A DNA stretch of 64,000 bases from a virus (taxonomy: Duplodnaviria > Caudoviricetes): IMG/VR virus record IMGVR_UViG_3300046167_000553, positions 693 to 64,692 of that record, one strand, 5' to 3'. Under the pieces are notes generated by a model, which saw nothing but the letters and a program-made list of their open reading frames with translations, was not told the DNA's origin and ran no database searches. A program made the position numbers and the translations under genes. The stretch's first letter is position 1. Every line of letters starts with the position of its first letter. Of this stretch, positions 9,901-17,450 are shown piece after piece.

Positions 9901-9921
9901 AGTTATACATTTGGTATAACT
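9901..9921. repeat. Palindrome copy 1, AGTTATAC-ATTTG-GTATAACT
   Basis: Exact arms; ends 26 bp upstream of ORF 9948. Confidence 0.9.
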
Positions 9922-10582: not shown

Positions 10583-10613
10583 AGCCACCTCCAAACGGGG
10601 GTGGCTTTTTTTT
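10583..10613 (+). terminator. Rho-independent terminator
   Basis: GCCACCTCC-AAAC-GGGGGTGGC followed by T8. Confidence 0.9.
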
Positions 10614-10770: not shown

Positions 10771-11300
10771 AGGTTGTAGGTTGTTATCGGAGGTTGTAGG
10801 TTGTTATCGGTTTCGTTAGGTTGTTATCGGTATTGTTACCTTTTTTGGACTTCCCGATAACAAAATACCATTTATAGGAACAGCTCACTACATCCAATCA
10901 ACTGACTCTGATTACACTTATAAATGATTGCAGATAGTGAGTAGTAGTAGTAGTAATTTATTTATTTATTGTATTGTTATCGTTTTTTATTATTAAGCAA
11001 TTATTGGGGGATGCGCTAGACCCCGCTGGAATGCATTGCCATCCTCCGCACACCTCAGTTCCCACCCTATAGCCACGATAACGCGATAACAATATAACAA
11101 ATCAATGATTTCAACAACTTACACAAAAAAGCGATAACAATACAATAACAAAACGATAACAAAGCAAAAGTTATACAAAATGTATAACTAAATAACAATA
11201 CAATCGCCAACGATAACAATACAATCACGCTCAATAACAATACCCCGTCCACCAAATAACAAAAAGGTAACAATACAATCGCCAACGATAACAATACAAT
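10771..11300. repeat. Bipolar iteron-like array (TTGTTATCG / CGATAACAA), candidate replication origin
   Basis: TTGTTATCG at 10781, 10801, 10821, 10974; CGATAACAA at 10855, 11084, 11132, 11154, 11211, 11286 plus ATAACAA variants; AT-rich stretch about 10955-11005. Confidence 0.7.
11169..11189. repeat. Palindrome copy 3, AGTTATAC-AAAAT-GTATAACT
   Basis: Exact arms, inside the iteron array. Confidence 0.9.
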
Positions 11301-11351
11301 ACTGAGCCAATAACTAAAGAATTGGGCCTTGTTTAACTTGGTTGGTTTTAC

Positions 11352-11380
11352 TTGACTCTAACGTGTTCTCAGCGTATAAT
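11352..11380 (+). promoter_or_regulatory. Strong sigma70-type early promoter
   Basis: TTGACT-17 bp-TATAAT. Confidence 0.85.
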
Positions 11381-11386
11381 GGTTGT

Positions 11387-11790
11387 TCAATGGTAGTAAT
11401 TTGTGTTTGGACGCGTTGCTACCTATGCCGCATGACCCGCTTTTGGTTGTGCTGTGTTGTTGTTGTTATAGAGCCAGTGGTAGGGAGTGCGAAAGTTATA
11501 CATTTTGTATAACTTTTGGTCTGAAAGCCGTAGCAGCCATGCAGTTTGTGGTGATGCGCGATCCTATCCAACGCCGGTCAACGCAATACAGTTCCTCCCA
11601 TCTGCGACGATGCACTAACAATCCAAACTAGCCAGCGAAGACCGCGACGGGTACTGGCGAATCACGCAGCGAAAGCACATACCGAGTATGTGTGAGTTGC
11701 GCGTGGAGTGGCTATTCGATGAACCCTCGTTACCAATCCGAGTCAGTATCCAATGAGCCTCGCGCCAAGCGGTAACGCTGGCGAAAAAAA
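11387..11790 (+). ncRNA. Long structured leader / candidate ncRNA
   Basis: No credible ORF with an RBS; serial hairpins with G-U pairs (11392-11423, 11430-11452, 11676-11692, 11763-11783) and TAGCCA/TGGCTA closing 11629-11714. Confidence 0.45.
11494..11514. repeat. Palindrome copy 4, AGTTATAC-ATTTT-GTATAACT
   Basis: Exact arms. Confidence 0.9.
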
Positions 11791-11841
11791 CCTGTCCACG
11801 GTTTCTCAATACCGTGTTGATAAAGCCACAGCAGAAACAGG
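11791..11841 (+). ncRNA. Candidate type III hammerhead ribozyme (U3-A8 core variant)
   Basis: CCUGUC^ / stem I CACGGU-loop-ACCGUG / UUGAUAA / A-GC-CACA-GC-A / GAAA / CAGG closing stem III. Confidence 0.55.
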
Positions 11842-11848
11842 AGCAAAC

Positions 11849-12088
11849 ATGGATAAACAAAATCTGGAAGTACGTCGTACTCTAAACTCGTTAGAGCTAT
11901 GGCGCAAACGTGCCGTTGGCGAAAGCATCCGGTGCAGCAGTGTGATGCACGCGTTGTTTGATGTAAGGAAAGAGTTAGAAGAAGCAAAGAAAGCACTAAC
12001 AATGGGCGACGAGTCTTGGGCAGACGCGGCAGTTGATCGCGCACAGTCCCTTGTATCCGAAGCACTCACTAGGAGTAACCATGAATAA
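11849..12088 (+). CDS. Early hypothetical protein
   Basis: AGGAG RBS, ATG 11849, 79 aa helical. Confidence 0.7.
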   Translation: MDKQNLEVRRTLNSLELWRKRAVGESIRCSSVMHALFDVRKELEEAKKALTMGDESWADAAVDRAQSLVSEALTRSNHE

Positions 12089-12299
12089 GCTACGTAAACG
12101 TTCGTATCAGCACGCTTGCTTTGGGCGCAGTACCGCAGCAATACCGAGCGCACCCATCGCACCGTTCAACCCCGAGGCCGAAGGTAGGGTAACCCATCAG
12201 ACCTACACCGGTTCCTTGGTTAAAGGTATTGCCACCATGCACAAATCAAACCTGATCCCTGTTACTGAGGGTATCGGCACCAATCCTAAAATTACGTAA
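12081..12299 (+). CDS. Conserved small phage protein (YTGSLVKGIATMHKSN motif)
   Basis: AGGAG RBS; motif recalled from aquatic phage proteins. Confidence 0.75.
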   Translation: MNKLRKRSYQHACFGRSTAAIPSAPIAPFNPEAEGRVTHQTYTGSLVKGIATMHKSNLIPVTEGIGTNPKIT

Positions 12300-12306
12300 A
12301 GCCAAT

Positions 12307-12327
12307 AGTTATACATTTTGTATAACT
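12307..12327. repeat. Palindrome copy 5, AGTTATAC-ATTTT-GTATAACT
   Basis: Between stop 12299 and the next RBS. Confidence 0.9.
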
Positions 12328-12328
12328 T

Positions 12329-12416
12329 TTAAGGAGACACATGGGAACAAGAAGAAGCAACAACATTCAGTATCCAATGAGCTTAAGGAGACACATGGGA
12401 ACAAGAAGAAGCAACA
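12329..12416 (+). repeat. 34-bp direct duplication of an RBS plus N-terminus (54-bp period)
   Basis: TTAAGGAGACACATGGGAACAAGAAGAAGCAACA at 12329-12362 and 12383-12416. Confidence 0.95.
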
Positions 12417-12748
12417 TGGCGCGTGCGAAACTTACAAGGCCGTCGCATCTAGCCACCATCAGCAAGAACTTGCCTTGCCCAAGCGAATCAGTCATCAGCC
12501 AATCGCGTGACAACATGACGGTACTCGACGCCGTGCTGTTATGGGACTTATATGATGACTGGGCGTACGAGTTGCACATAGAGAACTATGAGCGGCGATC
12601 ACGAAGGCTGAGCAACGCGTGTGATGTACTCGCGAAGTGGCTCAGCAATGAGTATGGCATAACGCCAATTGACTGTCTGATTCCTGATCGGACACCTGAA
12701 CCCATAAACAACCCATTCAAAAAAATCTTTGGAGAAAACCATGACTGA
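12341..12748 (+). CDS. Early hypothetical protein with two in-frame starts (12341 and 12395)
   Basis: AAGGAG RBS before both ATGs. Confidence 0.7.
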   Translation: MGTRRSNNIQYPMSLRRHMGTRRSNMARAKLTRPSHLATISKNLPCPSESVISQSRDNMTVLDAVLLWDLYDDWAYELHIENYERRSRRLSNACDVLAKWLSNEYGITPIDCLIPDRTPEPINNPFKKIFGENHD

Positions 12749-13643
12749 ATTAAACTTCAACACCCCTGACATTCAAACCGATGTATCCCTCGCAACCTCA
12801 GCGTGTCTTGTAAGCTGGAATGTATCGTCTTGGTCTGGACGTAAGAAGGACTCTAAAGCTGCTGACAGTTTATCAGTAGCTACCGGCGCACGATCCAAGG
12901 CCGTGTCTGTTCACAAGAAGCTGATCACACTGCCTGAGTTTGAGGCCATCGGTAAGCACGTTGGCTGGGTACGTAATAACTTCCACTACTCTAAGACGCT
13001 ACCGTGGTCTGATACAGGCTTGCGATTGCTAGCCACTGAAGAGTTATTTGAGTACAAGCCTCAAATGGAGGAGCATCAGCAGGAGTTCGATAGGCTTGTC
13101 AGTGAGTTCTTCTCAGTATATCTAGACGCGATCAACCGAGGCCGTAACGAATTAGGCACGTTGTTTGATGAGACGCAGTACCCCACGCTTGACGAGCTTG
13201 CGGGTAAGTTCTCTTGGCGTACGACGTTTATCCCTGTACCCACGAGTAATGACTTCCGCATTGATGTATCGCAGGTGCAGAAGGACACCCTAGCAAGTGA
13301 GTATGAAGATTTCTACCAAGCTGAGATGAAGCGTGCAATGGATACCGTGTGGGTAGACTTGCATACGTCACTGGTAGAGCTAAGCCAGAAACTAGACTTT
13401 GAGGCTTCCGGTAAGAAAAACAAGCTGTTCGCATCACGGCTGGATACCATACGCCAGCTAACCCGATTGCTGGGGTCATGTAACTTTACCAACGATCCCA
13501 AGATGGCAACGATGCAGCGCAAACTGGCATCAGCGTTTGACGGCTTGACGGTCGAGCAGCTTCGCCATAGTGATTCATTGCGTGTCGAAACCAAGGCTGA
13601 GCTTGACGATGCCATCCGACAACTTCCTAGCTTGGACTTCTAA
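12741..13643 (+). CDS. DUF3150-like early protein
   Basis: SWSGRKKD, TLPWSD.G.RLL and LG.LF....YP motifs; GGAGA RBS; typical partner of the AAA/vWA pair. Confidence 0.7.
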   Translation: MTELNFNTPDIQTDVSLATSACLVSWNVSSWSGRKKDSKAADSLSVATGARSKAVSVHKKLITLPEFEAIGKHVGWVRNNFHYSKTLPWSDTGLRLLATEELFEYKPQMEEHQQEFDRLVSEFFSVYLDAINRGRNELGTLFDETQYPTLDELAGKFSWRTTFIPVPTSNDFRIDVSQVQKDTLASEYEDFYQAEMKRAMDTVWVDLHTSLVELSQKLDFEASGKKNKLFASRLDTIRQLTRLLGSCNFTNDPKMATMQRKLASAFDGLTVEQLRHSDSLRVETKAELDDAIRQLPSLDF

Positions 13644-13671: not shown

Positions 13672-13878
13672 ATGAAGTATTACGTTGAAGCTTACTACGA
13701 GGATGGTGGTCAAATCCTCGGCAACTGCGACGGGCAAACGGTGCTTAGGTGCCGTAACCCCCGTCGAACAAAGCACTACCGTCATCTACGTGACGTTATT
13801 GCTAACCGCAAGTACCCCAAAGTCTCTTACTACAAGATAGTAGACGACAAGGGCCGACTGTTTGAAACCATCCTATAA
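13672..13878 (+). CDS. Small basic hypothetical protein
   Basis: 68 aa filling the intergenic gap; no Shine-Dalgarno sequence. Confidence 0.6.
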   Translation: MKYYVEAYYEDGGQILGNCDGQTVLRCRNPRRTKHYRHLRDVIANRKYPKVSYYKIVDDKGRLFETIL

Positions 13879-13893
13879 TCTTTGGAGAAAACC

Positions 13894-14982
13894 ATGAATG
13901 CATTAAAAACTTACGCAGTAAATTTTGAAGAAGCTGTCGCAGCTATCGTGAACCTTGGCGATGAGGTCACCTATGTTTTTGAGGGTGATATGGGTATTGG
14001 CAAATCTGCCATGTTGAAAATGGTCGCGGCGCAACTGCCTGACCACGTACCCTGCTACTTCGATTGTAATACTAAGGACGTAGCCGATGCCTTTGTACCT
14101 GACATTTCCTCAGCGCAAACTGAGAATGTGGTACGTATGGTGCCTAATGCTGAGTTCGGTATTCAACACGGTAAACCTGTTATCCTGATGATCGACGAGG
14201 TGGGCAAGGCTGAGGGTGCTTTACTTAAAGCATTGTTTGCAACGTTCCACGAGCGCAGCATTGGCATGACCCCGTTACCTGAAGGCTCTATCGTCTTTGC
14301 AACAACTAACCTAGGTGCCGAGAATCTTGGTGACCTGATCCCTCCGCATGGCTTAGACCGTGTAACTAAAGTACGACTCCGAAAGCCGACCCCTACCGAA
14401 TGGATGGAGTGGGGCTTCAACAATGACATTCACCCTACCGTTCTGGCGTGGGTAAAAGACAATCCTCAGTTATTCAACTCCTTCGACGATGTATCATCCC
14501 CTGAAGATAATCACTACATCTACCATCCCAACGTTGTTCGCGACGGCTTCGTTACCCCTCGTGGTTTGGAGCGTGCGTCTAAGATCATTCACAAGATGGA
14601 CTTGATTGGTGAGACTATGACTCGTAGCTCATTGATCGGCACGCTAGGCTCTCATGGTGCCGGTGATCTTATGGCGTTTGTGACATTGTTTAATCAAATC
14701 CCCTCGCATGACGCAATACTATCTAGTCCGACTACAGCCATCGTACCCACCGACGCAGCAGCAGCGTGCATGGTGGTGGCGCGTGCGCTTGTCAAGCTGG
14801 AAGCTAAGGACGTATCTAAGTGGATGAACTACCTAGTACGTTTGGACAAAGGTGCACAAGTATTGTTTGGCTTGCAAGCTAAGGCCAAAACCTACAAGCG
14901 TCAGAAGGCTGTCGTTACTAATGCTGACTTCAACAAGTGGGCCTTGGACAACAGCTACATCTTCAGTGCTGACAAGCGATAG
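13894..14982 (+). CDS. AAA+ ATPase (MoxR/dynein-related-like)
   Basis: Walker A GDMGIGKS, Walker B LMIDE, sensor ATTN, TPR. Confidence 0.88.
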   Translation: MNALKTYAVNFEEAVAAIVNLGDEVTYVFEGDMGIGKSAMLKMVAAQLPDHVPCYFDCNTKDVADAFVPDISSAQTENVVRMVPNAEFGIQHGKPVILMIDEVGKAEGALLKALFATFHERSIGMTPLPEGSIVFATTNLGAENLGDLIPPHGLDRVTKVRLRKPTPTEWMEWGFNNDIHPTVLAWVKDNPQLFNSFDDVSSPEDNHYIYHPNVVRDGFVTPRGLERASKIIHKMDLIGETMTRSSLIGTLGSHGAGDLMAFVTLFNQIPSHDAILSSPTTAIVPTDAAAACMVVARALVKLEAKDVSKWMNYLVRLDKGAQVLFGLQAKAKTYKRQKAVVTNADFNKWALDNSYIFSADKR

Positions 14983-17086: not shown

Positions 17087-17259
17087 AAGTTATACAAATG
17101 TATAACTTAGCATACGGATATGCTGTTCAGTTACTAGAAGCTGGTTACACATTGGACGAAGCTGGATCAGCAGCATGTATCATGCACAACTTAGATGAGT
17201 TTCAGTCTGAAGATTTGTGCATAAGACTTAATCGTTTCTTTGGAGAAAACACTGTATGA
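17083..17259 (+). CDS. Small hypothetical protein (58 aa, MKVIQMYNLAYG...)
   Basis: ATGA overlaps with neighbours at both ends; not in the ORF track. Confidence 0.55.
   Translation: MKVIQMYNLAYGYAVQLLEAGYTLDEAGSAACIMHNLDEFQSEDLCIRLNRFFGENTV
17088..17107. repeat. Palindrome copy 8 with a 4-bp spacer, AGTTATAC-AAAT-GTATAACT
   Basis: Exact arms, starts 2 bp after stop 17086. Confidence 0.85.
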
Positions 17260-17450
17260 AAAATAACACGGTCATTGGAAAGCTTGCACACCCTGAGACT
17301 ATGGGTAGAGCAAAACCTGTGGACGACATTATTTCAATTGACAGACTAGAAAAGTTTGTTAACAGGACGTTTCATTGGAAAGGTCTAACAACTTCTGACC
17401 AGATGAAAATGGCTAAGGAGTTACTACTAAGGAGGCTGGCAGATGATTGA
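17256..17450 (+). CDS. Hypothetical protein
   Basis: GGAGA RBS, 64 aa. Confidence 0.6.
   Translation: MKNNTVIGKLAHPETMGRAKPVDDIISIDRLEKFVNRTFHWKGLTTSDQMKMAKELLLRRLADD

Follow-up and report, generated by a model that had tools for sequence, protein, structure and literature searches.

Processed or structured leader RNAs are found in the early operons of phages, as in P1 C4, P4 CI and HK022 put. The other class of RNA element that is close to the locus described here is the hammerhead ribozyme, whose natural variants were surveyed by Perreault et al. (2011; PMC3088659). That survey describes covariation to U3-A8 in nature, examples in which stem II has only two base pairs or a single one, and one natural U10.1-U11.1 mismatch, U-U being the best-tolerated mispair at a position that is the most conserved pair after 15.1-16.1 and at which mispairs were rejected in the authors' screen. 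It also describes frequent pseudoknots between the stem-loops, hammerheads that occur between phage genes, a weakly active A6C variant from phage Bcep176, and a halovirus hammerhead for which the mapped 5' end of a transcript lies no more than 3 nt from the cleavage site. Approximately 1,300 minimal hammerheads with U3-A8 and low in vitro activity were reported in Schistosoma by Cervera and de la Peña (2014; PMC4209133), and U3-A8 also occurs in the hammerheads of PLEs. In a full double-mutant scan of one type III hammerhead, Roberts et al. (2023; PMC9901934) found that only the C3G/G8C swap rescued activity, the remaining double mutants in the 3/8 region being low.

The locus studied here lies in a 64,000-nt stretch of DNA (hereafter the window) from a complete virus record of 64.7 kb from seawater-type samples. 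The terminase, portal and structural genes of this phage are on the minus strand, and the plus strand carries an early/replication block encoding a DUF3150-like protein, an ATPase, a DNA polymerase, a helicase and a primase. Two related genomes were found, L087 and L002 (also L086 and L090), of which L087 is 97–98% identical to the window and L002 is ~84% identical in the leader region. Beyond these, positions 11300-12400 gave no blastn match in the phage collection, and a profile of the leader (nhmmer) had no match in 82 phage loci encoding a DUF3150 protein or in 79 loci that carry a homologue of the 72-aa gene lying downstream of the leader.

The hexamers of the sigma-70-like promoter (Table 1) are unchanged in L087 and L002, with differences at 2–3 spacer positions, and the leader transcript is predicted from this consensus match to start near 11388. 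There is no conserved ORF between the promoter and the ATG at 11849, and indels of 1, 8 and 17 nt between the relatives break every frame in the leader. A protein-coding reading of 11753-11848 was considered and rejected, as four of the six substitutions there change a residue and upstream indels break the frame. RNAalifold, run on the three genomes, predicts 136 pairs; 98.8% of cells are paired, and 8 of the pairs have changed on both sides. That level of compensatory change was reached in 0 of 500 shuffles, and slid controls gave 0–3, for a model that was derived from the same three sequences on which it is scored. The minimum free energy (MFE) of the leader has a z-score of -3.39 on the plus strand, with 1 of 100 shuffles as good, and of -0.80 on the minus strand. 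The leader is noncoding, lies on the sense strand past the promoter and shows compensatory changes (in three sequences, from which the structure was itself derived), as structured cis-acting leader RNAs do. It is a structured noncoding RNA of the plus strand. An earlier, sequence-only reading of this locus had placed its candidate element in a noncoding leader upstream of the first early gene, and the promoter, the compensatory pairs and the z-score bear this out. Rfam, applied at the gathering score to 22 related loci (280 kb), returned no family, and the leader itself is without an Rfam family.

The clearest helices in the model are 11675-93, 11763-85 and a long-range pairing of 11458-65 with 11579-90. 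In the first of these hairpins, G11675-U11693 is replaced by G-C in L087, the loop has an 8-nt insertion in L002, and contigs from two sequencing runs (X12 and X18) carry A11677G and T11693C, by which pairing is kept. In the second, which ends directly upstream of the candidate element, the substitutions other than those in Table 1 fall in the bulge or loop; this hairpin was considered as an intrinsic terminator and rejected, as it is followed by A7 and not by a U run. One of the sequencing runs (X20) is from an RNA library of depth ~4, in which DNA carry-over is possible. Its contigs cover 11442-11677 and 11802-11844, the latter joined to 12077-12212, and leave 11678-11801 uncovered. The four sequencing runs were compared as assembled contigs, which cannot show RNA ends.

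During our studies of the leader, we noted several kinds of repeat in its surroundings. The palindrome GTTATAC-N5-GTATAAC is present in eight exact copies of 19 nt each, at 9902, 10705, 11170, 11495, 12308, 13645, 14982 and 22467 (0.25 expected). All of these are in the plus-strand early/replication region, mostly just upstream of genes, and L002 keeps the half-sites with a changed spacer. The palindrome resembles an operator or promoter at which a phage regulator would act, and the copy within the leader may serve as a DNA operator instead of an RNA hairpin. Between a strong terminator at 10583-10606 and the early promoter, a 20-nt unit (AGGTTGTAGGTTGTTATCGG) occurs as three exact tandem copies, and iteron-like repeats of the CGATAACAATACAAT type occur at least seven times, at 10771-10830 and 11084-11317. 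This repeat region may represent a replication origin or a partition-like site.

Table 1. Features of the leader and of the genes that follow it; positions are those of the window.
Feature	Position	Strand	Details or basis
Sigma-70-like promoter	11352-11380	+	TTGACT-17-TATAAT; 11 of 12 consensus positions; consensus match only
Structured noncoding 5' leader RNA of the early operon, ~460 nt (5' end predicted)	11388-11848	+	RNAalifold, z-score, frame-breaking indels
Palindrome copy in leader	11495-11513	+	GTTATAC-N5-GTATAAC; 11-bp hairpin in the RNA model
Leader hairpin with covariation	11675-11693	+	C11678-G11690 to U-A in L002, to U-G in L087
Leader hairpin with covariation, directly upstream of candidate	11763-11785	+	G-C to A-U in L002, C-G to U-G in L087
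Hammerhead-like three-way junction, type III topology	11791-11841	+	Letters, fold, descriptor
Stem III	11791-95 with 11837-41	+	CCUGU with ACAGG; read in sequence
Candidate cleavage triplet	11794-96	+	GUC; predicted cut after C11796
Stem I	11797-802 with 11811-16	+	CACGGU with ACCGUG; 8-nt loop
Core	11817-23	+	UUGAUAA; U3-A8 form
Stem II	G11825-C11832, C11826-G11831	+	Loop CACA; A11824/A11833 mismatch at flank
G12-A13-A14	11834-36	+	GAA, then A11837; read in sequence
Competing extended hairpin	11793-11822	+	UGUC 11793-96 with GAUA 11819-22 across a UU bulge, lengthening stem I
Shine-Dalgarno	11839-11843	+	AGGAG; 5 nt upstream of ATG 11849
ORF79	11849-12088	+	79 aa; variable accessory first gene, no known family
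72-aa gene	12081-12299	+	phrog_27048; next after leader in L087 and L002

The 51 nt at 11791-11841, in the 3'-terminal part of the leader, had been read from the letters as a candidate type III hammerhead ribozyme. When the sequence was re-read, all of the hammerhead elements were indeed present, in order and at the coordinates claimed. Three helices surround a junction, with stems I and II closed by loops and stem III open. The N-U-H triplet is G11794-U11795-C11796, in which U11795 pairs with A11837 as the A15.1-U16.1 pair, and GAA supplies G12-A13-A14. The core holds five of the six specified letters of C3-U4-G5-A6-N7-G8-A9, counting positions 3 and 8 as one covarying U-A pair. That this pair is a natural variant is documented (PMC3088659, PMC4209133), but in the scan of one type III hammerhead in PMC9901934 the C3G/G8C swap was the only double change reported to rescue. 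The two weak spots that the sequence-only reading had itself named also stand: stem II has 2 bp, the least that a hammerhead description with at least 2 bp would accept, and at 10.1/11.1, usually a G-C pair, A11824 faces A11833. In addition, a Watson-Crick pseudoknot between loops I and II is impossible, because loop I (UUCUCAAU) has no G for the C residues of loop II, which is CACA or CAUA. The proposed sequestration of the ribosome-binding site by stem III holds in two of the three genomes. In the window the AGGAG shares 3 nt with stem III, and L087 keeps the AGGAG, where it serves a different gene, the 72-aa gene that directly follows. It does not hold in L002, where 22 bases of different sequence precede the 72-aa gene and supply a GGAG of their own; this Shine-Dalgarno is further downstream than the AGGAG and lies outside stem III.

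To estimate how readily such a motif arises by chance, we wrote our own type III descriptor and applied it to dinucleotide shuffles of the whole window, on both strands (n = 1500). In its strict form, meant to find the candidate or better, the descriptor accepts C3-G8 or U3-A8, a stem I of at least 6 bp, a free 10.1/11.1 position plus at least 2 bp in stem II, a stem III of at least 5 bp and loops of 3–20 nt. None of the 1500 shuffles matched. A relaxed form (stems I and III of at least 4 bp) matched in 19 of 1500 shuffles, a mean of 0.0127 per window, and a canonical-core form in 7 of 1500; in the real window the candidate is the only match. A match of this kind in the window is therefore not trivially explained by chance. 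Because the descriptor was written after the candidate had been seen, the shuffles nonetheless understate the true rate. Allowing for other deviations that might have been excused, we estimate a rate of 0.005–0.025 per window, which is not negligible over many windows.

A descriptor search of related phages had been suggested in the sequence-only reading, and its outcome counts against a hammerhead. A still looser descriptor (stem III of at least 3 bp, longer loops), applied to real phage DNA, found three poor matches in the 82 DUF3150-protein loci, none of them at an equivalent place, and none in the 79 loci with homologues of the 72-aa gene. Because the motif is absent from all of the more distant relatives examined (82 + 79 loci), no family can be demonstrated. 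A pattern scan with free stem I matched the L002 genome alone among viral contigs and had no match in genome contigs. A 14-base pattern of core plus stem II had at least 112 matches in viral contigs; among those listed, seven have a 2-bp stem II and two (L175 and L254) have a loose full architecture, which we judged to be at chance level.

Comparison of the window with its close relatives revealed that the block is unusually constant. Of 509 leader positions, 80 vary among the three genomes, and the 51-nt block has a single variable site, C11829U, the third base of loop II. It is among the nine of 452 leader windows of 51 nt that carry no more than one variable site, and contigs from two sequencing runs that span it (X6 and X12) list no change there. 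Consequently the core letters are kept in the homologues, as the sequence-only reading had expected, although these homologues are close relatives only. No stem position is variable in any relative (window, L087, L002, and the X6 and X12 contigs), and for this reason there is no covariation evidence for or against a hammerhead. The constancy of the whole block, including the 8-nt loop I and both stems, points to constraint at the level of sequence. Homology to L002 ends exactly after ACAGG, the 3' end of stem III.

What follows the block is far more variable. ORF79 is absent from L087, L002 and the X6 and X20 contigs, the two contig sets joining 11844 to 12077; X12 has the gene, shortened in frame by a 24-nt deletion at 11860. 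It has no PHROG or Pfam match and no relatives in viral or genome contigs. The block thus remains fixed as the gene after it changes, being followed by ORF79 in the window and X12 and by the 72-aa gene in L087 and L002. The 72-aa protein, of unknown function, has a C-terminal motif found very widely among marine viral contigs (at least 562 tblastn relatives), and many unrelated contigs from the sequencing runs pile up on 12199-12260. Further downstream, a 54-nt tandem duplication at 12329-12436, with 34 nt exactly repeated (12329-62 and 12383-416), doubles the Shine-Dalgarno and first codons of a 135-aa ORF (12341-12748); in L087 the duplicated segment is present once. Nearly the same translation-start cassette (AATCTTTGGAGAAAACCATGA...) recurs before three early genes (12724-12754, 13877-13907 and 17235-17265).

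We consider it about an even chance that the 51 nt are the 3'-terminal module of the ~460-nt structured leader, that is, a leader hairpin and ribosome-loading tract in the early operon of an uncultured marine tailed phage. The conservation data could also be explained without any function for the block beyond its carrying the Shine-Dalgarno. In that case, near-identity would result from recent recombination at a module boundary, where the gain or loss of ORF79 and the divergence of L002 meet, and the likeness to a hammerhead would be pure chance. Consistent with such a boundary, the homology break is immediately 3' of the block and the endpoints of ORF79 presence or absence sit in a pair of similar SD-ATG stretches. 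The similarity of the genomes is also uneven, with identities of 0.6–0.98 per 100 nt, and the same leader has a second invariant run, of 47 nt, at 11386-11432. We nevertheless find this explanation unlikely. The block keeps its sequence, the loop II site aside, in every variant that covers it (window, L087, L002, X6 and X12), in lineages that are 16% apart in the leader, and the motif is rarely produced by chance. Selection for structure is evident elsewhere in the leader, and neutrality of its last 50 nt is therefore not the default expectation.

Searches with models of known hammerheads did not recognise the element. Rfam at the gathering score found neither a hammerhead nor any other family in the window. 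The hammerhead families had no match at E<=10 on segments of 401, 1301 and 64 nt containing the element, although on the 64-nt segment unrelated matches of 7–16 bits were listed. The best RF00008 match in the genome scores 10.9 bits and is elsewhere; RF02276 and RF00163 found nothing in this genome or in that of L002, and RF00008 found nothing in the latter. As a calibration, the same models were applied to the genome of Burkholderia phage Bcep176 (L089, NC_007497), in which the published A6C element was itself not located by us, and RF00008, RF00163 and RF02276 had no match at E<=10, nor did cmscan list a hammerhead at E<=1. Given that Bcep176 was also missed, a miss by these models does not exclude a core variant.

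Folding predictions revealed a competitor for the three-way junction. For the isolated 51 nt, the MFE structure (-12.2 kcal/mol) is exactly the proposed junction, and the junction is also the MFE structure, with a probability of ~0.93, for transcripts 11760-11841 and 11786-11848. It is the best fold only up to transcripts of ~82 nt. In long contexts it is 1.5 to 4.1 kcal/mol less favorable, as UGUC is then paired with GAUA, and extending the transcript by more than ~100 nt upstream or more than ~20 nt downstream lowers the probability of stem III to 0.003–0.12. The resulting extended hairpin is predicted to bury the cleavage site and core positions G5 to A8. In a series of eight contexts, five start upstream of 11760, and four of these give UGUC:GAUA a probability of 0.72–0.89; in a separate series of five contexts, the longest gives it 0.73–0.86. 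Stem I has a probability of at least 0.95 in seven of the eight contexts of the first series (0.063 in the eighth) and in one of the five of the second, in which three intermediate contexts give 0.02–0.58. Both the consensus fold of the three genomes and the MFE structure of the entire leader contain the extended hairpin. Since the junction is the MFE structure of local transcripts of up to ~82 nt, it could form co-transcriptionally. A hammerhead fold thus appears to be accessible, perhaps as the RNA is being made, and the predicted resting state is a different one.

How the 3'-terminal module might work can be outlined from these predictions. It would consist of a very stable hairpin (11797-11816), usually lengthened by UGUC:GAUA, followed by an A-rich, mostly unpaired tract that runs into the Shine-Dalgarno. 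Hairpin and tract together would form a portable end-of-leader element that loads ribosomes onto whichever gene is first, and the helices upstream would keep the long untranslated RNA folded. The resemblance to a hammerhead would then be coincidental or vestigial, and we infer that self-cleavage is probably not the working mechanism. This reading is supported by the near-consensus promoter, by a noncoding leader with stability specific to the plus strand and eight compensatory pairs, and by the preference for the extended hairpin in long contexts. It also agrees with the lack of a match to the hammerhead models, with the mismatch at 10.1/11.1, and with a block that is invariant even in parts that a hammerhead leaves free and is kept as the first gene is swapped. 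Against it are the rarity in shuffles of hammerhead letters in this order and spacing (0 of 1500 strict, 19 of 1500 relaxed), the place of the block among the nine least-variable of 452 windows, and the end of L002 homology at the end of stem III. The ~0.93 probability of the junction in transcripts of up to ~82 nt also argues against it, as do the U3-A8 cores and 2-bp stems II described in active natural hammerheads (PMC3088659).

The same observations have to be weighed for an active type III hammerhead of an unusual subclass, with U3-A8, a purine-purine 10.1/11.1 and a 2-bp stem II, that would cut the early transcript after C11796. The cut would release a structured leader RNA of ~410 nt and leave a 5'-OH mRNA with the stem I hairpin as its cap; once the 5-bp stem III falls apart, the AGG of the Shine-Dalgarno would be freed in the window and L087. 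The presence of every element, the empty result of the strict descriptor in shuffles, the near-invariance of the block up to the stem III edge in L002, and an MFE structure that is the junction, both for the element by itself and for local transcripts, all favor this reading. So does the location between genes, on the sense strand, in a phage, for which there are described counterparts, as there are for U3-A8, stems II of 2 or 1 bp and a U-U at 10.1/11.1 (PMC3088659), with U3-A8 again in PLEs (PMC4209133). The failure of the Rfam models carries little weight here, as they missed Bcep176 too.

We still regard an active hammerhead as improbable. Its stems show no variation and hence no covariation, and its 10.1/11.1 mismatch is A-A, whereas U-U is the best-tolerated mispair and the published screen rejected mispairs there (PMC3088659). 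In the type III hammerhead that was scanned exhaustively, double changes in the 3/8 region other than the C3G/G8C swap were low (PMC9901934). There is no Watson-Crick pseudoknot between loops I and II, although short stems II usually rely on such contacts, and no hammerhead family appeared at E<=10 on 64 nt, where even matches of 7–16 bits were listed. The junction is costly in long contexts, loop I and the stems vary less than a hammerhead would allow, the overlap with the ribosome-binding site is absent in L002, and a similar motif is absent from the 82 + 79 loci. Our estimates for biologically meaningful self-cleavage are equally low, and range from negligible to low but appreciable according to how rare triple-deviant hammerheads are taken to be in nature. 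The more specific proposal, that the element belongs to an unrecognised minimal subclass (U3-A8, A-A at 10.1/11.1, a 2-bp stem II and no pseudoknot) and works by a co-transcriptional cut with the products given above, ncRNA and hairpin-capped mRNA, seems if anything slightly less probable.

Finally, a protein binding site, either a CACGGT-N8-ACCGTG operator in DNA or a hairpin target of a translational repressor or RNase, could be suspected from the perfect 6-bp inverted repeat with an equally invariant 8-nt spacer 33 nt upstream of the start codon, but is very unlikely, as the repeat is unique in the window (three matches with up to two mismatches vs 1.43 expected, the two others poor), the evident regulatory palindrome of this phage has a different sequence and eight copies, and no candidate binding protein was found.

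Whichever reading is correct, the ~460-nt leader is a structured phage RNA that Rfam does not cover. If the hairpin and ribosome-loading tract are all that the block provides, the locus is a caution that a conserved motif with the full letters of a hammerhead, rare in shuffles, can arise in such a setting. If the element does cleave, it would widen the sequence space accepted for natural hammerheads and would be a clear case of ribozyme processing at the boundary of early leader RNA and mRNA. Its mismatched 10.1/11.1 and U3-A8 would also mean that surveys based on models or consensus undercount phage ribozymes; that model-based screens can miss core variants is suggested by the case of Bcep176.

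How the locus compares with known systems depends on which of its features are considered. In keeping the 3-8 pair as U-A and in its 2-bp stem II, the candidate is like described natural hammerhead variants (PMC3088659, PMC4209133). The portions of the literature that we drew on hold a natural precedent for each of its deviations except the A-A, and none for their combination. Like the intergenic hammerheads of phages and prophages (PMC3088659), it lies in the sense orientation within a polycistronic transcript and immediately precedes a gene. Those described hammerheads nearly all match the consensus core or have been shown to cleave, and form gene-flanking sets (PMC3088659), whereas the candidate is a single copy with three core-adjacent deviations. 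From type III hammerheads in general, the candidate differs in having A-A at 10.1/11.1, no Watson-Crick loop-loop contact, no covariation and no match to RF00008, RF00163 or RF02276 at E<=10. It resembles type III hammerheads (RF00008) in having a three-way junction whose stems I and II end in loops and whose stem III is open, in the GUC triplet and the A15.1-U16.1 pair, and in having the U-turn U-G-A, A9 and G12-A13-A14 in the correct order and spacing. With P1 C4, P4 CI and HK022 put the leader has no similarity in sequence or model, the sole c4-related Rfam line being of 8.5 bits and on the minus strand. Like them, it occupies the interval from an early promoter to the first gene as a long, structured RNA that is noncoding.
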